Source: Promethearchaeota archaeon (lineage in GTDB: Archaea; Asgardarchaeota; Lokiarchaeia; Sigyniarchaeales; SOKP01). From it: a DNA stretch of 32,894 bases. Position numbers and translations under genes: made by a program. A model generated the notes under the pieces. The model made no database searches. It was not told the DNA's origin and saw nothing but the letters and a program-made list of their open reading frames with translations. The stretch's first letter is position 1. Each line of letters begins with the position of its first letter. Of this stretch, positions 4,190 to 25,866 are shown piece by piece. The stretch is taken from contig JBHLME010000038.1 in assembly GCA_048938445.1 (NCBI GenBank), forward strand, positions 1 to 32,894. Direction: 5' to 3'.

Positions 4190-5353
4190 TTAAAAAGGAA
4201 AATTATATTTATTTAATCCAAGTTCTTGTTGCATGATTTTTATATCCTGTTGTATGCTTTTATTAATCGGAATCCCATTTTGTCTCCTTTCTAATTCTTT
4301 ATAGTATTCTTTTTCCCCTGCTGTATAAATTTTATTTTTTCCTGGAGCTTTTTTTGAGGAGCGAAGCGCTCTCATTATATTTCCAGTAATTCTTTTAAAA
4401 ATTTTCAGAGGTATGAAATTATCTATGTTAATTGCGAGAAAGAAGTGCCCTACTTTCAGCCTTTTTTGGCCATTCTCATATATTCCCATAGTATCTTTAA
4501 GATAAACGCCATCTTGTAAAGCAGAGGATAAGATCTCGACAAGGGTAGCATATCCATAACCTTTATATCCAGACATTCCCTCGCCCTTGCCTCCCAATGG
4601 TAATAATGCTGCTGAATCATCCAATAAATCATGTAATACATCATCAGGATTTGTTTTAGTATTTCCATCTTTAGTTATCACGACTCCCTTGGGTAATGGT
4701 TTATTTGAACGTTGATATACCTCTACTTTACCTCTTTGAACTATAGAAGTTGCACAATCAATTAGAAAAGGAAATTCCTCATCTGTAGGCACACCAGATG
4801 TTAAGGGATTAGTCCCTAACATTGGCTCGACACCAAATGTAGGAGGCACGGCAGGTCGAGCATTAGTCGTTGTGATCCCAATCATTCCTTCCTTGATAGC
4901 CATTAATGAGTAATAACCCGCAATCCCGAAATGAGTAGAATTTCTAACAGCTACAGCTCCAAGCCCGTACTTTTTTGCTTTTTTGATTGCCAAACTCATT
5001 GCTTCATGAGCAATAACAGGTCCCATACCACAGCCTCCATCAATAACAGCAGTTGTAGGTCCCTCCTTTACTATGTTTATTTCAGTTTTTATATTATAAA
5101 TCCCAGCTTTAATCCGGTCGTAATACATCTTGCAACGTTGAATTCCATGAGAATCAATACCCCTTAGATCGGATGTAATTAAAACGTCAGCAATAATTCT
5201 AGTATCTTTTTTAGGAACGCCTAGACAAATAAATACATCTCTCATAAAATTCATTAGAGTTTTAGCGTCAATTTTAACTATTTCCGATGATTCAGATAAT
5301 ACTTGATTTTGAATTGTCATTATTAACTCATTATTATCCTGTGATATACACAA
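4190..5353 (-). CDS. Ldh_2 family NAD(P)-dependent dehydrogenase (malate/L-sulfolactate/ureidoglycolate type), copy A; start may be ATG at 5320
   Basis: DLRGIDSHG, RNSTHFG, GTNP, GYKGYG, GHFFLAI, GEKE motifs. Confidence 0.9.
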   Translation of the reverse strand: MCISQDNNELIMTIQNQVLSESSEIVKIDAKTLMNFMRDVFICLGVPKKDTRIIADVLITSDLRGIDSHGIQRCKMYYDRIKAGIYNIKTEINIVKEGPTTAVIDGGCGMGPVIAHEAMSLAIKKAKKYGLGAVAVRNSTHFGIAGYYSLMAIKEGMIGITTTNARPAVPPTFGVEPMLGTNPLTSGVPTDEEFPFLIDCATSIVQRGKVEVYQRSNKPLPKGVVITKDGNTKTNPDDVLHDLLDDSAALLPLGGKGEGMSGYKGYGYATLVEILSSALQDGVYLKDTMGIYENGQKRLKVGHFFLAINIDNFIPLKIFKRITGNIMRALRSSKKAPGKNKIYTAGEKEYYKELERRQNGIPINKSIQQDIKIMQQELGLNKYNFPF

Positions 5354-5460: not shown

Positions 5461-6573
5461 TTAAAAAGGAAAAACATACTTATCAAGACCTAATTCTTTT
5501 TGCATGGTAATAATATCATGTTGTAGGTTCTTATTTATTGGTATTCCAATTTTTTTTCTCTCATTCTCAGCAATATATTCCTTTTCACCTGCCGTGTAAA
5601 TTCTTTCTGCTCCAGGTTCTTTTTTAGCACTTCTAAGACCTCTCATTATATTTCCTGCAGTTTTTGTAAAATTTGATAATGGTAAAAAACTCTCAATATT
5701 TATAGCTAAAAAGAAGTGCCCCACTTTTAACCTCTTTTGATTTTCTTCAACAATTCCTATTGTATCTCTTAAATATATCCCATCTTGTAACGCTGCAGAT
5801 AAAATTTCAACTATCGTGGCATATCCATATCCCTTATAACCGGAGGTTTCTTCACCTCTTCCACCTAAAGGTAATAACGCTGCCCGTTTATTAGATAAGT
5901 CTTTTAGAACTTTACTGGGATCTGTTTCAGTTTTACCATCTTCAGTAATAATTGTTCCTTCAGGTAAAGGTTTATTTATCCTGTTATATAACTCAACTTT
6001 ACCTCTTTGAATGATTGACGTAGCACAATCAAGAACAAAGGGAAATTCCTCATCAGTTGGAGCCCCCATAGTTAAGGGATTAGTACCTAGCATTGGCTCT
6101 ACACCAAATGTTGGGGGTATTGATGGGCGAGCATTAGTAACTGTTATACCAATCATTCCTTCTTTTATTGCCATAAGTGAATAATATCCAGCGATACCAA
6201 AATGAGTGGAGTTTCTCACGGCAACAGCACCTAAACCAAACTTCTTCGCTTTTTCTATAGCCATACTCATTGCTTTATGAGCTATCACATGACCCATCCC
6301 ACAGCCTCCATCTATAAGTGCTGTTGTTGGCCCATCATTTATCACTTTGATTTGAGTCCTGACTTCATATATTCCTTCTTTAATTCGATCGTAATACATC
6401 TTACACCTTTGTATTCCGTGAGAATCAATTCCTCTAAGATCTGATGTTATCAACACGTCTGCAATGATTTTAGCATCATCATTAGGGACACCAAGCCCTA
6501 AAAAAACATCCCTCATAAAATTCTCGAGAATTTCAGCATCAACATACGAAACTTTATCATTCATTATAATCAA
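5461..6573 (-). CDS. Ldh_2 family dehydrogenase, copy B; start may be ATG at 6564
   Basis: Same motif set as copy A, with long stretches identical to it. Confidence 0.9.
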   Translation of the reverse strand: MIIMNDKVSYVDAEILENFMRDVFLGLGVPNDDAKIIADVLITSDLRGIDSHGIQRCKMYYDRIKEGIYEVRTQIKVINDGPTTALIDGGCGMGHVIAHKAMSMAIEKAKKFGLGAVAVRNSTHFGIAGYYSLMAIKEGMIGITVTNARPSIPPTFGVEPMLGTNPLTMGAPTDEEFPFVLDCATSIIQRGKVELYNRINKPLPEGTIITEDGKTETDPSKVLKDLSNKRAALLPLGGRGEETSGYKGYGYATIVEILSAALQDGIYLRDTIGIVEENQKRLKVGHFFLAINIESFLPLSNFTKTAGNIMRGLRSAKKEPGAERIYTAGEKEYIAENERKKIGIPINKNLQHDIITMQKELGLDKYVFPF

Positions 6574-6713
6574 TTTATTAATTTACTCTATGATATAATC
6601 TATATCATTCCATTTCATTAAATTATTACTATTTAAAGATTAATATCAATGTTCAATGTAAAGAACCTAGAAAAAAGTTTTTATTTACATTCTAATATAA
6701 TAAACATGAGACC

Positions 6714-6968
6714 ATGGAAAATAAACCACTATGTAGTACATGCAAACATAATGCGCAAATATCATTATGTGGACCTTGTATAGAACAAGGTTCTCAAATG
6801 ATTGATAAAATTGCAATTGATTTAGGTGTTGAGATTGCTAATCCTGAAGACAATATTAATAAATATAAATATTCCTGTAAGATAATCATGAATTATCCCG
6901 AGGATTTTAATGATTTAGATCCATATAATTGCAAATATTATTTGAACTCTTGTCTTGGATTTCGATAA
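6714..6968 (+). CDS. Small Cys-rich hypothetical protein
   Basis: ATG start, CSTC, CGPC plus three further Cys; occupies an otherwise empty interval. Confidence 0.6.
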   Translation: MENKPLCSTCKHNAQISLCGPCIEQGSQMIDKIAIDLGVEIANPEDNINKYKYSCKIIMNYPEDFNDLDPYNCKYYLNSCLGFR

Positions 6969-7157
6969 TACGTATTATTATTAATAACTAGTATAGTCCT
7001 TTCAAGATCTATACGTTTTCTCCTCTCATAAAAAGTCTCCTTTTATTTAAATAATTTTAATATTCTAAATGATCAGCTTTTCCTTTACTGTCGTAATTTT
7101 ACATGTAATACATACATGATATCCCCTTTTTTGAATCTTTAAGTATACATTTATTTC

Positions 7158-7331
7158 ATGCGAATCAATGATCTTGAAAAAAAAGTCAGTGGTTTGATTT
7201 TTTCAAAGGAAATGACGGTAGAAGATGATGGGGAAGGAATAACATATGTATTTCCAGATACAAAAGAATTTCTTTCCATGGCAAAGAGAAAATTTGTTAA
7301 TAGAGGATTACTATCTGAGGAACAACTATAA
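7158..7331 (+). CDS. Small hypothetical protein (57 aa) or gene remnant
   Basis: Manual translation MRINDLEKKVSGLIFSKEMTVEDDGEGITYVFPDTKEFLSMAKRKFVNRGLLSEEQL*. The purine-rich codon usage matches neighbouring genes, and it is below the ORF-track cutoff. Confidence 0.5.
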   Translation: MRINDLEKKVSGLIFSKEMTVEDDGEGITYVFPDTKEFLSMAKRKFVNRGLLSEEQL

Positions 7332-7548
7332 AATAATCTATGATAATTGTAATTTAAATTATAGGACTCCAATATAGTACATTTTCTTGTAGGTTACTCT
7401 AATACATCTAAAAATACAATAAAACAGTAAGAAAAGAAAGCAAGGAAATAATTTAATCACCAATCTTAACTCAAAATCAAAAGATCTTTTTTAATTTTAT
7501 TTTTAAGAAATCAATAGATTTTAATTTTTAAATGCACTAGTAATAATT

Positions 7549-7852
7549 GACCGTTTAGGGCACGGTTGATACTCTTTACTGAGTGGACCACAAAATGCTC
7601 TTAGTGGAAAGTGCCTAATTTAAGGTTTTCATGAGTAGTAGTATGCCATTGTTATATTCCGGCGAAGCACCGGCTACATAGGTGGGTGCTTGGGCATTAA
7701 AACTTGTAGGAGTTTTATAAGTCCATAATGTGGAACCCGCTGAGGCCCGGGAGGGAGCAGGTGTAACACGAGGCGTTCACGCTTTGCAGTGCAGGTGTGG
7801 AGGGGTATGACAGCAGGTTATACTATTAGGATTAGAATCGAGGATTAGGTTT
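7549..7852 (+). ncRNA. ffs: Archaeal signal recognition particle RNA (7S/SRP RNA); ends approximate
   Basis: GC-rich ~300 nt island. Helix 8 motif GAGG-CCC-GGGA-GGG-AGCA (7742-7759); helix 6 TAAAACTT-GTAG-GAGTTTTA with GNAR loop (7706-7709); helix 5 pairings 7682-7691/7771-7780, 7650-7660/7802-7812 and 7636-7644/7820-7828; Alu-domain closing stem GGGCAC 7558-7563/GTGCCT 7611-7616; oligo-T at the 3' end. Confidence 0.93.
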
Positions 7853-7876
7853 TTTAATATAATCTTTCAATTTAAA

Positions 7877-9460: not shown

Positions 9461-9766
9461 TTACATTAACTCGATTTCGACAAGCACGGATTCGGGGATG
9501 TGTATCTTCATGATGAGATGCATGCTTCTTTCATTGGCAATTATTTCAAAAAGGCGTTTATGAATGCGCATTTCAAATTTTGCCCAAGTAGATGTTCCTT
9601 GACCAGAGGGTGCTTTCATTACTGGTACCCTTAATCTTTTTGTAGGCAAGGGAATTGGTCCATACTTTTTAATCCCTTGGGTTTTACAAACATTCTCAAT
9701 TTGCTCGCATACAGACATTAAGGAGTCTAGCTGAGTACTTGATAATCTTATGCGAGCTTTTTGAAT
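9461..9766 (-). CDS. rps10: 30S ribosomal protein uS10 (S10p/S20e), probably initiating at ATT 9766
   Basis: GPIPLPTKRL, GQGTSTWAKFEMRIHKRL. The conserved N-terminus (I)QKARIRLSST lies in frame upstream of the track's ATG at 9718, giving 101 aa. Confidence 0.95.
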   Translation of the reverse strand: MQKARIRLSSTQLDSLMSVCEQIENVCKTQGIKKYGPIPLPTKRLRVPVMKAPSGQGTSTWAKFEMRIHKRLFEIIANERSMHLIMKIHIPESVLVEIELM

Positions 9767-9888: not shown

Positions 9889-11025
9889 TTAGAAATATAA
9901 TAGAAATTTATTACCTAAATGGACATTTTTGAGATATTTTTTTGCAATTTTCAAGCATTTTTCTGCCTGATCTCGAGGAGTAATAGGTAAATCTTTCATT
10001 TGATAATCTCCATGGAATACGAGAAGACTATATGGAATTTCATTATTTATTGATCCAATAAAACGTGCTATTTTTTCCACTTCTCTATGATTTACATAAC
10101 CAGGGACCATTAAGGTACATGCACTCATTTCTGGCATTTCCTTTTCTCTTGTCCCGAAATATTTTTCTGCTAAATAATTAAAATTTTTAAGAGTTCTTTT
10201 ATTACTCCTCCCACATAGAGCCAAATTGAGTCTTTCATCAAAACTTTTTAAATCGAATTTAATGTTTCCCCCTGTTTTAATTGCTATTTTCATACAATTC
10301 TCTATTAAATTTTGATTACCGCTTCCATTCCATTCCCAACAAAACCTAAATTTACGATCAGGCTCATTTTTATGAATAATTTTTAGTATATTATTTGCGA
10401 GATTTATAGAAAAAGGTAATTGAGCTTCAGGTGTTCCTCCGAAATAACATAAACAAGTAATATCTTTTTTTTTACATATCTGATTTGTTAAAGTATCAAC
10501 ATCAGAAAGTCTTTTATTGGATATCCATTTATGAGATGAATTTTGGCAAAAAAGACAATTAAAAGTACAACCATAGAGAAAAGCAGCATAACTAAAAGTC
10601 CCAAATTCTGGTCCATTGAAATCAGAATATTGAGGATATCCTGCCGAACTTCCCGCAGGACAAAACCATGAATTACAGCAATTTGTAGGATTTGGATCTA
10701 TATAACCATGAATATACCCTCTTTTTCTATTTGGAAAGGGTAATTCTCCGCTCTCATTTTTTTTTATGTTTCGCAACCCACAATAACTAACATCATCAAA
10801 GGAGAGTTTACATTCATTTAAACAATAATTACATTTTAATTGAACATTATTATTTGCAGAAGGGGGCGTTTTTGGTAGATTTTCTAGCTTGCGGACTTTT
10901 TCATGAACGGCCATTACATGGTCTTTAACAAGATTCCAGTCTTCATTAAGAATGCAATCCCTACAAATCTCTAATATTTCAGAGATAAGTTTATCTTCTT
11001 TTTGGCAAAATTTACACTTTCCCAT
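9889..11025 (-). CDS. Radical SAM protein (PFL-activase-like / AmmeMemoRadiSam-type) with Cys-rich N-terminus
   Basis: GCTFNCLFCQN (CxxxCxxC), FGGTPE, WEWNG, KFDLK, LKNVHLGN; extra CKFC, CRDC, CNYCLNEC..YCGLR. Confidence 0.88.
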   Translation of the reverse strand: MGKCKFCQKEDKLISEILEICRDCILNEDWNLVKDHVMAVHEKVRKLENLPKTPPSANNNVQLKCNYCLNECKLSFDDVSYCGLRNIKKNESGELPFPNRKRGYIHGYIDPNPTNCCNSWFCPAGSSAGYPQYSDFNGPEFGTFSYAAFLYGCTFNCLFCQNSSHKWISNKRLSDVDTLTNQICKKKDITCLCYFGGTPEAQLPFSINLANNILKIIHKNEPDRKFRFCWEWNGSGNQNLIENCMKIAIKTGGNIKFDLKSFDERLNLALCGRSNKRTLKNFNYLAEKYFGTREKEMPEMSACTLMVPGYVNHREVEKIARFIGSINNEIPYSLLVFHGDYQMKDLPITPRDQAEKCLKIAKKYLKNVHLGNKFLLYF

Positions 11026-11028
11026 TTA

Positions 11029-11682
11029 TTATCCTTCTTTTTTTAACAACAGAAAAGTCTGACCTGCTTTCTGTTTGGGATTATTTTTTATAATATAACC
11101 GTCAAACCCATTATCTTTAAATGAAGAACTAAATAAGTCTAATTCACTTTCATTCTGAGGATAAAATTCAATAATAGCTCTTCCTTTTCCTTTTAAAATA
11201 CCTCGTAGAAACTTAGCTGTATTATTTACTACTTTCCTTTCCTCCCTAGTTCCTTCAAGTCCATAAATTATAAAGTTGTATGCTGACACGGAAATAATGT
11301 GATCAATACTCCTTTTTCTTAATGGTAAATAATTTATATCTGCTAATATTAAGTCCAAGTTATCTAACATCCTTACATTTTTCCTTTCATTGGCCTTCAA
11401 AAGCATATCTGGTAGGACATCGATACCAATTACTCGAAATCCGTTATCAATTAGAACCTCTGACGAATATCCAGTGCCACATCCCATATCTAATATTAAA
11501 TACGGAAAATTTTCATCAATATTGTTTTTCCCTAAATTATTATCATAGAGATATTCAATGCATCTTAACGTTGTCTTTTTTTGATTTCGTTCCATCCATT
11601 TTTGATTATTATATTCCTTAGCAAATTCTCCCTTGTAAGAATCTGGAAATTTAGGTAGATAATTTTTTCGTACCAATAGCAC
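11029..11682 (-). CDS. Class I SAM methyltransferase resembling eukaryotic Bud23/WBSCR22
   Basis: ILDMGCGTG motif I plus Bud23-type blocks: QKKTTLRCIEYL, ISVSA, GRAIIEFYPQN, NGFDGYIIKNNP, FLLL. Confidence 0.8.
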   Translation of the reverse strand: MLLVRKNYLPKFPDSYKGEFAKEYNNQKWMERNQKKTTLRCIEYLYDNNLGKNNIDENFPYLILDMGCGTGYSSEVLIDNGFRVIGIDVLPDMLLKANERKNVRMLDNLDLILADINYLPLRKRSIDHIISVSAYNFIIYGLEGTREERKVVNNTAKFLRGILKGKGRAIIEFYPQNESELDLFSSSFKDNGFDGYIIKNNPKQKAGQTFLLLKKEG

Positions 11683-11762
11683 TCATAATACATAAATAAT
11701 TAAAGGTTTTTAAATGTTGAAAGGTAAATGTAAATTAAAACAAAAATATTCATCATAATATC

Positions 11763-12173
11763 ATGGCTCAAGCTCAATCTAAAAAAGTATCAAATAAATG
11801 CCGGACAATCTTGATTTGCGATGATGAAAGTGATATTGTTTATCTTGCGGAAAAAATCTTAATTTGGGGAGGATATAATACAATAACCTGCAGTAACGGT
11901 AAAGAAGTATTGGAGACAATGGAAAAAATGCATAATGAGATTGATTTAATACTTCTGGATATCAGAATGCCTGTAATGAATGGTCATGAAGCATTAAAAG
12001 AACTAAAAACTATAAAAAGATTCAAAGATACTCCTGTCGTGCTATTTACCATAAATAATTATAATCAAGACGTTCAAAAAGGTCGAGAATTAGGAGCAGA
12101 TGCATTCTTACCTAAACCATTTTCGGCAAGAGGATTATTAAAATTCATACAAGAAATGTTAGAAATCCCTTGA
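11763..12173 (+). CDS. Stand-alone receiver domain (CheY-like) response regulator
   Basis: LICDDE, ILLDIRMPVMNG, LFT, FLPKPF. Confidence 0.92.
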   Translation: MAQAQSKKVSNKCRTILICDDESDIVYLAEKILIWGGYNTITCSNGKEVLETMEKMHNEIDLILLDIRMPVMNGHEALKELKTIKRFKDTPVVLFTINNYNQDVQKGRELGADAFLPKPFSARGLLKFIQEMLEIP

Positions 12174-12386
12174 GACGTTAAAGATTATTTAAAACCTAAA
12201 TAAAAATAATTTAGTGTTAACATCCTTATATCAATGCATTTATGTTATCGTTATGATATAATGACTTTAAATATCAAAACAACTTAATATGTAATTATAC
12301 CATTTAAATTTTTAATGGGATAAAAGCCATTTGAAATATATTTAATTAAAATTAACGAACATTTTTGAACTATTACCGGGTTTTGG

Positions 12387-12806
12387 TTGGAAATGATAAA
12401 ACAGGATAATGAAAGTAGTGTCATGAAGAAGTCAATCCTAATCGTAGATGATGAGCCCGATATTGTTAATTTAACTGAGAAATTTTTGAACTTAGGTGAA
12501 TTTAAGACAATTACTTGCATTAATGGAAAAGAAGCTTTAAAAATTATAGAGGAAAGATATGAAGAAATTGCTCTTGTTTTGCTTGACCTTATGATGCCAG
12601 GTCTTTCAGGGTATTCTATCTTGGAAAGTATCAAATCAAATGAAAAATATAAAGATATTCTTGTTGTATTATTTACAGTTAAAAGTTTTAACGAAGACAT
12701 CAAAAAAGGTCGAGAAATGGGAGCAGATGGATATTTGACAAAACCATTTGCTGGAAAAGAATTAGTGAAATTAATAAAGGAGATATTAAGAAATAAGAGA
12801 AATTAA
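12387..12806 (+). CDS. Stand-alone receiver domain response regulator (start may be ATG 12393 or 12423)
   Basis: LIVDDEP, VLLDLMMPGLSG, LFT, YLTKPF. Confidence 0.92.
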   Translation: MEMIKQDNESSVMKKSILIVDDEPDIVNLTEKFLNLGEFKTITCINGKEALKIIEERYEEIALVLLDLMMPGLSGYSILESIKSNEKYKDILVVLFTVKSFNEDIKKGREMGADGYLTKPFAGKELVKLIKEILRNKRN

Positions 12807-16646: not shown

Positions 16647-16667
16647 ATCCCACTAGAGCCTTTTACT

Positions 16668-16850
16668 TTACTCTTGATATTTTTTATTTAAAAAATAAAA
16701 AATTGTTATACTTACAACATATACAAGAGTAAAAATTCCCCAAAATAATGTCATTAATGCATCATTTTCAAGGATTCCGCGAATAAAAAACCAAACAAAT
16801 AAAATCGTTAATAAAAATAATAATCGAATTCTATTAGACCACTTGTCCAT
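16668..16850 (-). CDS. Small two-TM membrane protein
   Basis: Two hydrophobic segments separated by ENDA, with basic flanks. Confidence 0.55.
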   Translation of the reverse strand: MDKWSNRIRLLFLLTILFVWFFIRGILENDALMTLFWGIFTLVYVVSITIFYFLNKKYQE

Positions 16851-16998
16851 TTTAACAATATCTCAAGAGTTTTAATTAATAATTATTAAAATCTTTGATT
16901 AAATTAAAACACTAAGGTAAAAAAAAAATTATATAGAAAGAATAGAAATAAATTGAATAAAGTGTTAACTATTAATTATTACATCAATCAAAAAGGAT

Positions 16999-17214
16999 TT
17001 GAATAAGAAGATGCCAGATAAATCAAGACCTCCTTCATGTTTTTTATGTTCTAAGAATTATGAAGAAACATTAAACATGCTACATTATTGTATCTGTGAT
17101 ATAGGAATTTGCGATAATTGCATAAATTCCGTGAAGAATAGTGATACTACGTGGATATGTCCAAATTGTAAAGCCGAAAATTCAATTGAAGAAACTAAAC
17201 TGATACGATCTTAA
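16999..17214 (+). CDS. Small C4C4-type RING finger protein (start may be ATG 17011)
   Basis: C-x2-C-x13-C-x-C-x4-C-x2-C-x12-C-x2-C: CFLC..CIC..CDNC..WICPNCK. Confidence 0.75.
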   Translation: MNKKMPDKSRPPSCFLCSKNYEETLNMLHYCICDIGICDNCINSVKNSDTTWICPNCKAENSIEETKLIRS

Positions 17215-17269
17215 TTTTTATATATTCATGAATTCTTTTTATTTTCAAAAAAATATTATTATCATATTA

Positions 17270-17342
17270 AAGCCGATGATGATATATAAAAAGATGATTT
17301 AAAATTATTAAAAAGGATAAAATCAGAGGAAGGCTGAGGCTT
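17270..17342 (+). ncRNA. Candidate box C/D guide sRNA
   Basis: Terminal stem AAGCC (17270-74)/GGCTT (17338-42), box C ATGATGA (17276-82), box D CTGA (17334-37), putative D' ATGA (17294-97) and degenerate C' AGGATAA (17314-20); intergenic. Confidence 0.7.
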
Positions 17343-17630
17343 AAAAAGACAATATTTAATGATTATAGCGTAATTGAATCCCAAATTCGTAGAAATCAAT
17401 TATATCCTTTCACTTTAATTCTCAAAGGTTCATTCATAACGTTAATAATTACATTACTCTTAACTATAACAATTTGTTTTTTAAACTTCTTACTTACGAG
17501 TTTTTACTTTTCAAATACAATATTTTTATTAAAATATTGTCTTGGATTAATTTTTTGGGTTTGTATAAGTTCAATACCCTTTATAGGAATCTATTTTATT
17601 ATCAAGATTCCGATAATATCGTTTCAAATT

Positions 17631-17894
17631 ATGGATTTATTGCATATACCTTTCGAAATAAATATTATAATCTCATTATTTTCTTTTTTCACGATTGCAA
17701 TCATCGGATTCATATGTAACACCTATATTTTAATCATGTTGATAAAAAATTATTATCTTATTTCAAATGTTAAAGATAAAAATAGAAAAAAGACACAAAT
17801 TACCTTTTTAATTTCATTAGCATTAGGGGTTATTTTGATTTTCACTTCAGATTTTATATTCTTCCCAATTTATCAAGTATTAATCACTTTATAA
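17631..17894 (+). CDS. Small two-TM membrane protein
   Basis: Two long hydrophobic stretches with a basic loop KDKNRKK; ATG start. Confidence 0.5.
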   Translation: MDLLHIPFEINIIISLFSFFTIAIIGFICNTYILIMLIKNYYLISNVKDKNRKKTQITFLISLALGVILIFTSDFIFFPIYQVLITL

Positions 17895-17951
17895 AAAAAT
17901 ATATACGTTCCATTTTTAAATAAATTAAATACACATAATTGAAGAAATATC

Positions 17952-22274: not shown

Positions 22275-24989
22275 TTAGACATTTTGAAGGTACTCATCTA
22301 TGGCTTCAGCAGCTCTTTTTCCAGCACCCATCGCGGATATAACAGTTGCGCTTCCCGTTACTATATCTCCACCAGCAAAAATATCATCAATATTGGTTTG
22401 ACCCTTTTCATTAGTTTCAATGTATCTCCATTTATTAAGTTTTAATTCTGGAATAGATTTTGTCAAAATAGGATTTGCATTTGCTCCTATAGCTAAAATA
22501 ACCGTATCTGTCTCAATAATATGTTCTGAATTTTCAATTGGAATGGGCCGTCTCCTGCCTGAAGCATCTGGTTCTCCAAGTTTCATCGAGACAACCTCCA
22601 TTTCTTTAACATTATCATTTTCATCACCAATTAATCTTACAGGATTTGTTAAAAAACGGAAATCAATACCTTCTTCTTTTCCATGATGATATTCTTCGAT
22701 TCTTGCAGGCATTTCTGCTTCTGATCTCCTGTATACTAGGATAACTTTTTCGGCACCTAATCTTAGAGCCGTTCTAGCAGAGTCCATTGCAACATTACCA
22801 CCTCCGACTACAGTAACAATTTTTCCAACGTTTATTGGTGTATCATATTCAGGAAATCTATATGCTTTCATTAAATTTGACCTCGTGAGGAATTCATTAG
22901 CAGTTAAGACCCCGTTTAAATTAAGTCCTGGAATTTTAAGAAACATAGGAAGTCCGGCACCAACACCAACAAAAAATGCTTTAAACCCCATCTCTCTCAA
23001 ATCTTCTATAGTTAAGGTTTTACCAATAATCGAGTTATAATGTATTTTCACGTCTATCAATTTCAGAGTTTCAATTTCAGCTTTTACAATTTCTTTTGGT
23101 AACCTAAATTCAGGAATACCATAAACTAGTACACCTCCTCCCGCATGAAAAGCTTCAAAGATAGTAACATCATATCCTCTCATGGCAAGTTCTCCAGCAC
23201 ATGTTAATCCCGCAGGACCGGAACCAATAATCGCAACTTTTTTACTGTTTGGAGGTCTACAATCAGGGCATTCTTTAAGTTGATTTTCTCGTTCCCAATC
23301 AGCAATATATCTTTCTAAATATCCAATGGAAATGGGTTCTCCGAGATTGTTTAGCAAGCAAGTTTTTTCACATTGAATCTCTTGAGGGCATACCCTTCCA
23401 CATATAGCGGGCAACAAGTTATAATTTTTGACAATATGAATCGCATCAATATTTTTTTTTAACTTTATTTGTCTGATGAATCCTGGTATGTCTATATTTA
23501 CAGGACAACCAGTTACACATAGAGGTCTTCCACACTGTAAGCATCGCTGGCTTTCTTTAAGTGCCATTTCTGCAGTTAATCCATAAGGAACCTCATTAAA
23601 ATTATGAATACGCTCGTTGGGATCTTGTTCGATCATTTTAGGTCGTCGAGACTCTTTATAAGTTTTTTGTTTCGATTTAGAAATCTTAGAAAGTGAAATG
23701 AAGCTTTTATGATCTTCTTTTATTTCTTTCTTTTCAATTAAATCAAGGTCCAAAGCCTTTTTAAAGAGTTCAGCACCTTTTTCGGTTCTTATTATTACAG
23801 TTGACCACCCTGATTCTGAACCAATAGACCCTACTGAAATGTCTGCTTGTTCTGCTGTTAAATCATCACAGAAGAAGCATCCCAACCTGCCGTATTTTTT
23901 AATTTTTTTGAGAGGGATATCAATTGAAGAACCATCCTTATTATAGAGATAAAATCGCCCTTTATCTATATCCATTTTCTTTATATCAGTAGGTGGTGTT
24001 TGAAATTCGTTTTCTAAAAGTTCAAGAATATCTTTATAATTAAAAGATTCCATGCAAAATAATCCGATTTTAAATGAAATATTCTCATAAAATGGTTTAT
24101 TCAATGGATAAAAGGATATTTTTTTAATTGCTTCCATCATGCAAGGTGTTCCAACCACTGCAATATTATTAAATTCTTTTGAACGATTTAAAATCTTCAA
24201 TGAAGGTGAATTACTATATTTAGTTCCGGAAGTTTTCAATAAATCAACTTCATTACTTATGAAAACAGGTAAGGGATCATGTGGATTGCTAGATTCACTT
24301 ACTGCTAGTGCACCATCTATTAATCCCTCCCGAAAAGCTGTTTTAAGAAGTGTGGTAACAATACCTCCATCCTGAGCTACCCTTTGTATTTGAGAATCTT
24401 GAGTTTGAGCTGAATAAACCTCCAAATAGTGATTTAATGAATAAGAGATTTTTGTAGAAATATTTTCAGTTCCATTAGAATTTTTTAATGAATGTGGGAA
24501 AAAAGATCGTGGACAACACGCAAAACATGTTCCGCAACTTATACATTTATCTTCATTAATTTCAAAAGTTCCTTCTAAATAATTAATGGCATTAACAGGG
24601 CAAATTGATACACATAATCCACAGCCACAACACAAATTTTTATCCCTGATTATTGAAACATTAGGAAATACTCCTTCAATTTTATTTTCACTGATTATTT
24701 TCTGGAAAAATCGTGAATTTTCCCCAATAAACTCTAATAATCCTAATTCTTTTAAATATTCAATATTATATTCTATGTCTTTTTCTGAAATACCCGTTTC
24801 TGCCTTTAATTTATTAATATCTATTGAATTTAACTGCTTAATTTTGTTTAAAAGGTTTAATCTAGCATTTTCTGCACGGGTTAATGATTGAATATAGTCA
24901 TTTAATTCAGATTCAGTATATTTTCCAGCTCTTATAATTTTCTCCTTATTATATTCTAATATTTTTAATAATGTTGATCCTTGTTCCAT
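22275..24989 (-). CDS. Fusion: wHTH-like + 2x[4Fe-4S] ferredoxin + FrhB (F420-binding beta subunit family) + NfnB/SudA/GltD-like flavoprotein (start placed at ATG 24989; track uses 25019)
   Basis: CCGCGLCVSICP and CISCGTCFACCP; FrhB motifs QDGGIVT, GTKY, VGTPC, IGLFCMESF, GCFFCDD..ADISVG, GWSTVIIRT; NfnB motifs RCLQC..CVTGCP, GRVCPQEIQCE, GSGPAG, GGGNVAMD, YRRS, GDIVTGSATVISAM. GAGGT SD precedes ATG 24989. Confidence 0.9.
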   Translation of the reverse strand: MEQGSTLLKILEYNKEKIIRAGKYTESELNDYIQSLTRAENARLNLLNKIKQLNSIDINKLKAETGISEKDIEYNIEYLKELGLLEFIGENSRFFQKIISENKIEGVFPNVSIIRDKNLCCGCGLCVSICPVNAINYLEGTFEINEDKCISCGTCFACCPRSFFPHSLKNSNGTENISTKISYSLNHYLEVYSAQTQDSQIQRVAQDGGIVTTLLKTAFREGLIDGALAVSESSNPHDPLPVFISNEVDLLKTSGTKYSNSPSLKILNRSKEFNNIAVVGTPCMMEAIKKISFYPLNKPFYENISFKIGLFCMESFNYKDILELLENEFQTPPTDIKKMDIDKGRFYLYNKDGSSIDIPLKKIKKYGRLGCFFCDDLTAEQADISVGSIGSESGWSTVIIRTEKGAELFKKALDLDLIEKKEIKEDHKSFISLSKISKSKQKTYKESRRPKMIEQDPNERIHNFNEVPYGLTAEMALKESQRCLQCGRPLCVTGCPVNIDIPGFIRQIKLKKNIDAIHIVKNYNLLPAICGRVCPQEIQCEKTCLLNNLGEPISIGYLERYIADWERENQLKECPDCRPPNSKKVAIIGSGPAGLTCAGELAMRGYDVTIFEAFHAGGGVLVYGIPEFRLPKEIVKAEIETLKLIDVKIHYNSIIGKTLTIEDLREMGFKAFFVGVGAGLPMFLKIPGLNLNGVLTANEFLTRSNLMKAYRFPEYDTPINVGKIVTVVGGGNVAMDSARTALRLGAEKVILVYRRSEAEMPARIEEYHHGKEEGIDFRFLTNPVRLIGDENDNVKEMEVVSMKLGEPDASGRRRPIPIENSEHIIETDTVILAIGANANPILTKSIPELKLNKWRYIETNEKGQTNIDDIFAGGDIVTGSATVISAMGAGKRAAEAIDEYLQNV

Positions 24990-24993
24990 TTTA

Positions 24994-25866
24994 CTAAACC
25001 TCGTTTTTTGATTCTTCATATTCCTTACAATAACAATCCATGCATTCTTCTTCCTGTTCTTTGAATCTATTTGCTCGTTTTAGGAGATTATCAAAATCAA
25101 CAATATGGCCATCTACATCAGGTCCATCGACACAAGCAAAGAAAACTTCCCCGTCCATTGTCGAAAATCGACAACCCCCACACATTCCAGTTCCATCTAT
25201 CATTATTGTATTTAACGAAACATAAGTTTTTACTTTAGGTAAATCCCCCAAACCATTAGTTGTAAGGGTAACAAACTTCATCATTATCAAAGGTCCTATG
25301 GCTATGACGAACTCAATCTTTTCTTTTTGGATAATTTCTTTTAAAGGTTCTGTCACCACACCCTTTCTTCCTTCAGTTCCATCATCAGTACATATTATGA
25401 GTTCATCACTCACGGCCGCCATTTTTTCTCTCCAGAACAATAAATCAGTATTTCTTGCACCTATAATCGTTATTATCTTATTCCCTGCTTCTTTTAATTC
25501 CTTTGCTTGAGGATAACATGGAGCAATCCCAACTCCCCCTCCAATTATAACAATTGGATTTTGGAATTTATCAACATGTATTGCATTTCCTAAGGGACCG
25601 ACAACATCCAAAAGCTCATCTCCTTCATTTTGATGAGACAATAATTTAGTGCTTTTTCCTACTATTTGAAAAACAATTGTTATTGTACCCTTAGTTCGAT
25701 CATAATCCGCAACAGTTAGTGGAAATCGTTCTCCTGTTTCATTAATTCGTATTAGTATGAAATTTCCAGCGTGAGCTTTTTTTGCTATCAAAGCAGCTTC
25801 TATATCCATTTCCATTAGCGTTCCGCTATTTCCCAGTTCTTTTTTTTTAACAATCTTGTATGGCAT
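24994..25866 (-). CDS. nfnA: NfnA/SudB small subunit of NADH-dependent reduced ferredoxin:NADP+ oxidoreductase (FNR-type FAD/NAD + [2Fe-2S])
   Basis: GERFPLT, VGPLG, GGGVG, CTDDG, AIGP, MIDGTGMCGGC..CVDGP (Asp/3Cys [2Fe-2S] motif); directly upstream of the NfnB-like gene. Confidence 0.9.
   Translation of the reverse strand: MPYKIVKKKELGNSGTLMEMDIEAALIAKKAHAGNFILIRINETGERFPLTVADYDRTKGTITIVFQIVGKSTKLLSHQNEGDELLDVVGPLGNAIHVDKFQNPIVIIGGGVGIAPCYPQAKELKEAGNKIITIIGARNTDLLFWREKMAAVSDELIICTDDGTEGRKGVVTEPLKEIIQKEKIEFVIAIGPLIMMKFVTLTTNGLGDLPKVKTYVSLNTIMIDGTGMCGGCRFSTMDGEVFFACVDGPDVDGHIVDFDNLLKRANRFKEQEEECMDCYCKEYEESKNEV

Follow-up and report, generated by a model that had tools for sequence, protein, structure and literature searches.

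Does an archaeal gene that resembles eukaryotic Bud23 carry out the step for which Bud23 is known, methylation of a small-subunit ribosomal RNA (rRNA) guanine at N7? The question is raised by a methyltransferase gene on the minus strand of the DNA stretch analyzed here (the window; 32,894 nucleotides of contig JBHLME010000038.1, from a Promethearchaeota archaeon). The gene product is a member of the Bud23/WBSCR22 family in the broad sense without the C-terminal extension, and represents a distinct Bud23 subfamily, termed here NF-type, which forms a separate, well-supported clade. Three positions characteristic of Bud23 are changed in this subfamily, and the same genome encodes a second, QW-type family member, P0122, which retains them. 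A eukaryote-like 7-methylguanosine (m7G) step, as deduced for the window gene in the initial annotation, would fit P0122 better, judging from these sequence signatures. The gene and its relevant elements are as follows (window positions).

11029-11682, minus strand: NF-type Bud23-family S-adenosylmethionine (SAM) methyltransferase gene, 217 amino acids; coordinates include the stop codon; alternative TTG start at 11676
11470-11493, minus strand: SAM-binding motif I, residues 64-71 (LDMGCGTG), from alignment to yeast Bud23; G69 corresponds to yeast G57
11419-11421, minus strand: D88, the acidic residue ending strand 2; aligns with yeast Bud23 D77
11338-11358, minus strand: strand 3 and the following residues, 109-115 (strand 109-113), predicted to zip to the Trm112 C-terminal strand
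11272-11286, minus strand: loop after strand 4, residues 133-137 (SAYNF), with the subfamily-defining N136-F137 in place of eukaryotic Q-W
11167-11169, minus strand: E172 in IEFYP, in place of the Q of the Bud23 Q-x-Y-P block

The frame starts with GTG at 11682, immediately 5' of which is an in-frame TGA; the TTG start two codons inside the frame yields the 215-amino acid database twin P0002. The product is a class I SAM methyltransferase, and its Pfam and NCBIfam matches are to generic methyltransferase domains only, those of both genome copies in NCBIfam being below threshold. Affiliation to Bud23 is evident from sequence and fold comparisons. When all Protein Data Bank (PDB) chain sequences were searched with phmmer, 32 sequences matched at E<=0.01, and human WBSCR22/BUD23 and yeast Bud23, the 18S rRNA guanine-N7 methyltransferase, account for the four best (E 8.6e-17 to 3.2e-16). 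The fifth match (9xab_1, E 8.1e-12) is labelled only 'methyltransferase-like protein', and the first generic methyltransferase follows at E 2.9e-9. The HMMER alignment to the yeast Bud23 chain 4qtt_B (query 19-214 to chain 17-199, E 1.6e-16) contains every block on which the initial annotation had based its block-by-block likeness to Bud23, i.e., the N-terminal Q..T.R..E.L helix, ISVSA/ISISA, E/QFYP, GF.G and the FLLL/YLVL end. An AlphaFold2 model built from a 68-row alignment has a mean predicted local distance difference test score (pLDDT) of 92.9, and its Foldseek ranks 1-8 are occupied by Bud23/WBSCR22 chains only (E 7.1e-19 to 2.9e-16, template modelling score (TM) up to 0.90), the first other entry having E 2.3e-12.

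In a search of 1.84 billion representatives, the window protein had 1414 matches at E<=1e-3, including 133 at <=1e-10. An alignment of 146 rows was constructed from 128 database representatives, both genome copies, open reading frames (ORFs) of retrieved loci and one outgroup. Before tree building, rows shorter than 180 amino acids were removed, as were P0131 and P0248, which are two-domain fusions. Eukaryotic Bud23 is marked by the C-terminal basic extension PF12589 (WBS_methylT), which was found in 33 of the 128 representatives scanned, and all 33 of these rows fall within the eukaryote clade of the 146-row tree. A Pfam scan of the window protein found no PF12589; the lack of the extension, as initially annotated, is thus real. 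Against a profile of the 57 eukaryote-clade rows, the window protein scores 138.3 bits and P0122 137.6 bits, whereas two unrelated methyltransferases score 27.6 and 40.0 bits. Because the two copies score alike and far above unrelated enzymes, both are full members of the family.

In the 68-row alignment, D65, G69 and G71 are invariant and D88 is nearly so. Yeast Bud23 G57 and D77 are the positions altered in catalytically dead mutants (PMC9935685), and the matching SAM-binding residues, G69 and D88, are present in the window protein. The protein would accordingly be able to bind SAM through intact motifs and to be catalytically competent, which, as part of the whole explanation favored below, is held to be about an even call.

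The genome is a 4.63-Mb assembly of 256 contigs (96.5% complete, 8.2% contaminated). Its second Bud23-family gene, P0122 (G000:C124:36569-37195, where G000 is the genome and C124 the contig), encodes 209 amino acids; its identity with the window protein is 30% according to BLASTP and 34% in the genome search. P0122 matches yeast Bud23 at E 5.8e-24 and 87.9 bits, in an alignment beginning at Bud23 residue 3, and the window protein scores 63.8 bits. From these pairwise scores, the window gene could have been regarded simply as the more divergent copy, a view overturned by the nearly equal scores against the eukaryotic profile. In addition, 121 genomes sampled from the phylum of the window in GTDB (G000 included) were searched; f2, f3 and f18 are labels of families in this sample. 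Median scores against the eukaryotic profile are 126.8 bits for NF-type proteins of the window's family (n=8) and 122.7 for the wider NF-type (n=22), and 143.7 for QW-type Loki proteins (n=9), 152.2 for family f3 (n=3) and 120.1 for DPANN (n=7).

On contig C124, the QW-type gene (L003:79-702, plus strand) and a divergent eS25-like gene (L003:980-1276, minus strand) lie side by side. The QW-type gene also adjoins a gene for a Gtr1/RagA-like small GTPase (Pfam 4.5e-8), and three more genomes of the family have the same trio.

The subfamilies are distinguished by residues of the presumptive active site, as seen in a table of columns conserved at >=80% in the 57-row eukaryote clade. The methyl-transfer pocket of class I methyltransferases is in general lined by the loop that follows strand 4. 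At this loop, N and F are present in 30/30 rows of the window's clade, whereas Q (0.98) and W (1.00) prevail in the eukaryote clade and Q-W is also found in all QW-type Loki rows (9/9) and the f3 group (14/14). Similarly, the residue before Y-P is E in 28 of the 30 rows of the window's clade, and Q in 0.98 of the 57 eukaryote rows and in all 9 QW-type Loki and 14 f3-group rows. DPANN loci likewise carry Q-W and Q-x-Y-P. As Q-W and this Q are common to eukaryotes and every other archaeal clade examined, N-F and E most simply represent the derived state. The window protein therefore lacks the signature of Bud23 proper (Q-W and Q-x-Y-P) as well as the C-terminal extension; of the two genome copies, only P0122 retains both signatures. 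Some other eukaryote-conserved residues, S73, G86, M93 and G192 in window numbering, are kept by the window's clade and are partly lost in the QW-type Loki clade.

A careful tree was inferred using IQ-TREE under LG+C20 with posterior mean site frequencies (PMSF) from 71 rows, a hand-picked subset of the 146, and 198 columns. The NF-type clade is supported at 100/98 in this tree and at 99 in a quick tree of 87 rows; in the careful tree, the QW-type Loki clade has 100/97 and the eukaryote clade 99/97. The order among these clades is less stable. The careful tree joins eukaryotes, with 91/81 support, to a group made up of the f3 group and the NF-type clade, the latter being nearer to them than the QW-type Loki clade is, and adding 16 DPANN and other rows shifts eukaryotes next to a group of DPANN and QW-type Loki proteins (support 80 in the 87-row tree); the topology thus flips with taxon sampling among the 146-, 71- and 87-row trees. 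In approximately unbiased (AU) tests, holding eukaryotes and QW-type Loki proteins together lowers the log-likelihood by 1.36 units (p-AU 0.423, not rejected), holding NF-type and QW-type Loki proteins together by 12.47 units (p-AU 0.113) and holding NF-type proteins and eukaryotes together by 12.73 units (p-AU 0.201, not rejected). Because the order flips with sampling and none of the three tests rejects a grouping, the trees cannot name which archaeal clade is the nearest relative or orthologue of eukaryotic Bud23. Of the initial annotation, the assignment as a Bud23 homolog is borne out by PDB sequence, fold and profile, whereas a eukaryote-like m7G step performed by the window gene is not, since the signature is kept by the paralogue P0122 and replaced by N-F and E in the window's clade. 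The proposed profile search and phylogeny gave a comparably divided answer: the Bud23 profile is matched, and an exclusive grouping with eukaryotic Bud23 is neither supported nor rejected.

Both types are widespread in the window's lineage. Among the 15 other genomes of its family, NF-type genes (>200 bits) are present in 10 and QW-type genes (>230 bits) in 12, with a further QW-type fragment in a 125-amino acid open frame of G083. The sister family f2 has weaker NF-type copies in both of its genomes, as does f18 in its single genome; QW-type genes occur also in both f2 genomes and, at 94-101 bits, in three of the four f3 genomes. In the other 22 families, no Bud23-family member was found with the QW-type query at E<=1e-12. 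Most genomes of the order keep both types together. Close homologs of the window protein come from metagenome-assembled genomes (MAGs) labelled Promethearchaeota or other Asgard names. Among species-representative genomes, the full-length relatives outside Asgard-labelled or unlabelled archaeal MAGs belong to DPANN (Nanoarchaeia, Woesearchaeota, Aenigmatarchaeota and Iainarchaeum) and are all QW-type.

Bud23 acts with Trm112, and a single Trm112 gene was found in this genome, outside the window (G000:C160:476-1102, minus strand, identical to L001:476-1102). The product of 209 amino acids matches Pfam Trm112p (1.7e-10) and NCBIfam Trm112_arch (2.2e-12). The halves of its zinc knuckle (CP.D ... 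C..C) are separated by an insertion of >100 residues, a form kept in 25/25 genomes of the order; this Trm112 is longer than the archaeal forms of 60-80 and 130-140 amino acids described previously (PMC5372719). The structure prediction with this Trm112 that had been suggested at the outset was run with the 68-row alignment of the window protein and a 23-row alignment of Trm112, and gave interaction prediction scores from aligned errors (ipSAE) of 0.91, 0.91 and 0.92, whereas the best of three controls gave 0.00. The ipSAE mark applied is reached by 116 of 157 solved complexes and by 2 of 215 mismatched pairs. In the predicted complex, pLDDT of the partner is >=89, the runs share 100% of contacts, and methyltransferase residues 110-115 contact Trm112 residues 166-173, in keeping with the strand-zipper interface reported for Bud23-Trm112 (PMC5372719, section 2.5). 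A heterodimer with the genome's Trm112 is thus most likely, as far as modelling can tell.

The genes surrounding the window gene include one for a small-subunit ribosomal protein.

9461-9760, minus strand: ribosomal protein uS10 gene (TIGR01046, 7e-36), downstream of and on the same strand as the methyltransferase gene
9889-11025, minus strand: radical SAM gene, 378 amino acids, activase-like; its ATG lies 3 bases after the methyltransferase stop
11683-11762, no strand: divergent intergenic region, 80 bp, A+T-rich, between the methyltransferase and response-regulator genes, from sequence inspection
11763-12173 and 12387-12806, plus strand: two single-domain response-regulator genes, divergent from the methyltransferase gene

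TATA-like runs about 10-35 bases 5' of the GTG would constitute a putative promoter. The radical SAM gene is probably co-transcribed with the methyltransferase gene, given the 3-base gap and a GAAGGA stretch preceding its ATG. Gene order was compared among 49 non-redundant NF-type loci (the duplicate contig L058 was dropped), which are mostly close kin and not independent. Of the 44 loci that extend >=1200 bases downstream, 36 have the radical SAM gene directly 3' of the NF-type gene; uS10 is downstream in 33 of the 38 loci with >=3500 bases downstream, and a divergent response regulator is upstream in 45 of 49. The response regulators are conserved neighbors, linked to the methyltransferase gene by position.

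In the sister family, the order is eS25 (divergent), QW-type, NF-type and uS10, with no radical SAM gene, in 3/3 distinct loci (L021, L032 and L022; L033 represents the same contig as L022). All 4/4 loci of the window's own family have eS25 beside the QW-type gene; the call of eS25 in this genome (Pfam Ribosomal_S25, 3.5e-6) has 27.6 bits, just below the cut-off of 28.8. The archaeon UBA543 has a tandem of NF-type followed by QW-type (L061:3965-5265), opposite to the arrangement of the Loki sister family. Most likely, a gene located between two genes for small-subunit ribosomal proteins was duplicated in tandem, and the two copies were subsequently separated in the window's family.

The radical SAM protein has an N-terminal Cys-rich stretch and an activase-like core; it has no close match among solved structures, the best in the PDB being pyruvate formate-lyase activase (E 0.0021). 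Its NCBIfam matches are far under their cut-offs, and its look-alikes in the Atlas are unnamed pan-archaeal radical SAM clusters, drawn from Bathyarchaeota and Nitrososphaerota; by sequence, the gene belongs to a pan-archaeal family. Of the 121 Asgard genomes, 92 carry a single copy of it, also in families that have no Bud23-like gene, and at none of 14 loci from other families is uS10 or a Bud23-like gene nearby. In view of these two counts, the idea that the methyltransferase and the radical SAM enzyme are functionally coupled was downgraded. The adjacency is recent and restricted to one lineage, and is therefore given little weight.

The window as a whole has a G+C content of 24-34%, and neither tRNA genes nor Rfam families were found in it. 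ORFs of >=100 amino acids are missing from 6574-7876 and from 16647-17951, each about 1.3 kb long and without an Rfam or tRNA match; the second of these falls where the window is richest in A+T (24% G+C). Adjacent paralogous Ldh_2 genes (malate/L-lactate dehydrogenase family 2; Pfam about 8e-121 each) are located at 4190-5353 and 5461-6573, both on the minus strand. The minus-strand gene at 22275-25019 encodes a 914-amino acid fusion of a 4Fe-4S ferredoxin, FrhB/FdhB (F420 hydrogenase/dehydrogenase beta) and a GltD-like pyridine-nucleotide oxidoreductase, and overlaps by 26 bases the end of a 290-amino acid gene at 24994-25866 with NAD-binding and Fe-S cluster-binding domains. The 33 kb also contain a four-helix-bundle sensor fragment and four genes for response-regulator receivers (944-2626, 11763-12806 and 3-662), of which the pair beside the methyltransferase gene is conserved in 45 of 49 related loci.

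What, then, might the window gene do? The explanation favored here, to which an even chance of being right is given, is that it encodes a Trm112-dependent small-subunit rRNA methyltransferase of the NF-type Bud23 subfamily with an altered target. An archaeal QW-type Bud23 gene would have been duplicated in tandem between eS25 and uS10, giving rise to the NF-type subfamily. The NF-type protein would bind SAM, pair its strand 3 with the C-terminal strand of Trm112 in the manner of Bud23-Trm112, and act on small-subunit rRNA during 30S maturation. Three positions taken to line the pocket changed and then became fixed, N-F taking the place of Q-W after strand 4 and E that of the Q ending strand 5; the smaller N-F together with a carboxylate would make the base pocket roomier and charged. 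Methylation of guanine N7 needs no proton abstraction, which is needed when the target is a ring NH or an exocyclic amine. A roomier, carboxylate-bearing pocket, set beside an N7 reaction that does not need this abstraction, would point to a base or atom other than N7 of the guanine equivalent to G1575, which we take to be G1338 of Escherichia coli. The classic m7G mark would be better assigned to the QW-type paralogue P0122.

A wider proposal, which is tentative and has clearly less than an even chance, is that Lokiarchaeial Asgard archaea possess a two-enzyme Bud23 system born in tandem in the eS25/uS10 cluster. In this system, the QW-type enzyme with Trm112 would produce m7G, the NF-type enzyme with Trm112 would produce a second, unmapped 30S base methylation, and the Bud23-Trm112 module, occurring in Asgard and DPANN, would be older than eukaryotes.

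Several points weigh against an NF-type enzyme of altered target, and most of them favor instead a functional Bud23 equivalent that, with Trm112, forms m7G at the G1575-equivalent of 16S rRNA and tolerates N-F and E, the QW-type copy being redundant or stage-specific. The eukaryotic-profile score of the window protein equals that of the QW-type copy and its fold is nearest to Bud23; the careful tree groups the NF-type clade with eukaryotes (91/81), closer than the QW-type Loki clade; and some NF-type homologs are automatically named '18S rRNA (guanine1575-N7)-methyltransferase' by the Joint Genome Institute (JGI). In addition, G071 (100% complete), G077 (92%) and G025 (91%) contain an NF-type gene and no QW-type gene by the query used, so that the NF-type can stand alone and might in these genomes do the classic job. 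Replacement of Q by N and of W by F is chemically conservative, and guanine binding might still be possible. Q-W is reported to contact and hold the guanine in the Bud23 structure, a role that agrees with the general position of the loop after strand 4. A literature search for the active-site mutants of that structural work found nothing. A 2017 review states only that Bud23 binds its purine in the way seen in a plant xanthosine methyltransferase, and that this was borne out by active-site mutants (PMC5372719). As for the history, the AU test with NF-type and QW-type Loki proteins held together disfavors, without rejecting, an origin by tandem duplication. The Trm112 pairing may reflect memory of solved structures: because Trm112-methyltransferase complexes have already been solved, the score shows likeness rather than proof of binding. 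Moreover, we infer the rRNA substrate, the changed target and the chemistry. A plain Bud23 equivalent is nevertheless considered unlikely. The three positions that are 98-100% conserved in the 57 eukaryote rows and kept in the other archaeal clades examined are changed in all or nearly all of the 30 rows of the window's clade; both types are retained together in most genomes of the order, which fits diverged functions; and an exclusive clade of NF-type proteins and eukaryotes is worse in likelihood, as described above, even if not rejected.

The substrate could also lie outside small-subunit rRNA, e.g., in tRNA, 23S rRNA, a translation factor, a ribosomal protein or a small molecule, perhaps modified in cooperation with the radical SAM protein. 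In archaea, Trm112 partners with many methyltransferases that differ in substrate (PMC6144793), the radical SAM gene directly follows most NF-type genes, and in the window's family 8 genomes have both genes, 5 have neither, 2 have the methyltransferase only and none has the radical SAM gene only. This possibility is doubtful: the radical SAM family is common in Asgard genomes, families without a Bud23-like gene among them, and was not found near uS10 or Bud23-like genes at the 14 loci from other families, its linkage is recent and of a single lineage, and adjacent genes vanish together anyway. The older neighbors of NF-type genes encode two small-subunit ribosomal proteins; in similarity to the window protein, no other methyltransferase family, whether eukaryotic or solved, approaches Bud23. 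A mainly non-catalytic role, as an assembly factor or placeholder on the nascent small subunit, would be consistent with the rescue of a yeast null mutant by catalytically dead Bud23 (G57R, D77A) (PMC9935685) and with the statement that methylation is dispensable for the cellular function of Bud23 (PMC5372719). Such a role is quite improbable, as all SAM-binding positions are conserved across the clade and the fixed pocket changes point to selection on the catalytic pocket rather than decay. An NF-type methyltransferase with an altered small-subunit rRNA target thus remains the favored explanation.

The presence of the Bud23 family in both Asgard and DPANN archaea is contrary to statements in a 2017 review and a 2018 paper, according to which archaea have no Bud23 homolog and no m7G has been reported at the corresponding position of archaeal 16S rRNA (PMC5372719; PMC6144793). 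That Asgard homologs may have been noted already, as was surmised at the outset, proved correct. Among 120 listed homologs, four have the automatic JGI name '18S rRNA (guanine1575-N7)-methyltransferase' and eight 'UbiE', and Supplementary Tables S5 and S10 of a 2021 study (PMC8481954) list BUD23 for Asgard archaea, even when presence 'in at least half of the species' is required. The same tables place BUD23 in the stratum of the last universal common ancestor (LUCA), and in that of the last eukaryotic common ancestor (LECA) once domain architecture is required. A full-text search of the published literature found no paper joining Bud23 with Asgard archaea or Lokiarchaeota, and no account of the NF/QW split, the eS25-uS10 tandem or the Trm112 pairing, bioRxiv supplements lying outside the search. 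The value of the window gene itself is moderate, as it is a derived copy and BUD23 was listed for Asgard in 2021. In Loki-type genomes, the family is split into two conserved subfamilies located beside small-subunit ribosomal protein genes, with Trm112 encoded. This makes two questions testable: whether a late step of eukaryote-type 40S maturation or modification was already present in an archaeal ancestor, and which new rRNA mark the remodelled copy would write. If the two-enzyme proposal is true, the Bud23-Trm112 module predates eukaryotes.

Among known systems, yeast Bud23 and human BUD23 (WBSCR22) with Trm112/TRMT112, which form m7G1575 and m7G1639, respectively, in 18S rRNA (PDB 4qtt, 4qtu, 6g4w and 7wts-7wtw), are the best match of the window protein in both sequence and fold. 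They have in common the class I fold, the Bud23-specific N-terminal helices, the Y-P and G-F-x-G blocks, counterparts of the SAM residues G57 and D77, and the strand-zipper predicted with Trm112. The window protein differs in the lack of the PF12589 extension, in N-F for Q-W, in E for Q before Y-P and in its separate clade. Other Trm112-activated methyltransferases (Haloferax volcanii Hvo_0019-Trm112, PDB 6f5z; Mtq2, Trm9, Trm11 and METTL5) share the class I fold and are stabilized by the small Trm112 subunit through the same strand-zipper (PMC6144793; PMC5372719), but 6f5z_B is a far weaker match (Foldseek rank 19, E 1.4e-11, TM 0.57) and the active-site motifs of these enzymes differ from those of the window protein. 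The QW-type archaeal proteins, i.e., P0122 and the products of single-copy genes in DPANN and other Asgard archaea, belong to the same family as the window protein, have about 200-215 amino acids and likewise lack the extension; with about 30% identity to the window protein, they keep the eukaryotic signature and have lost some of the positions that the window protein keeps.

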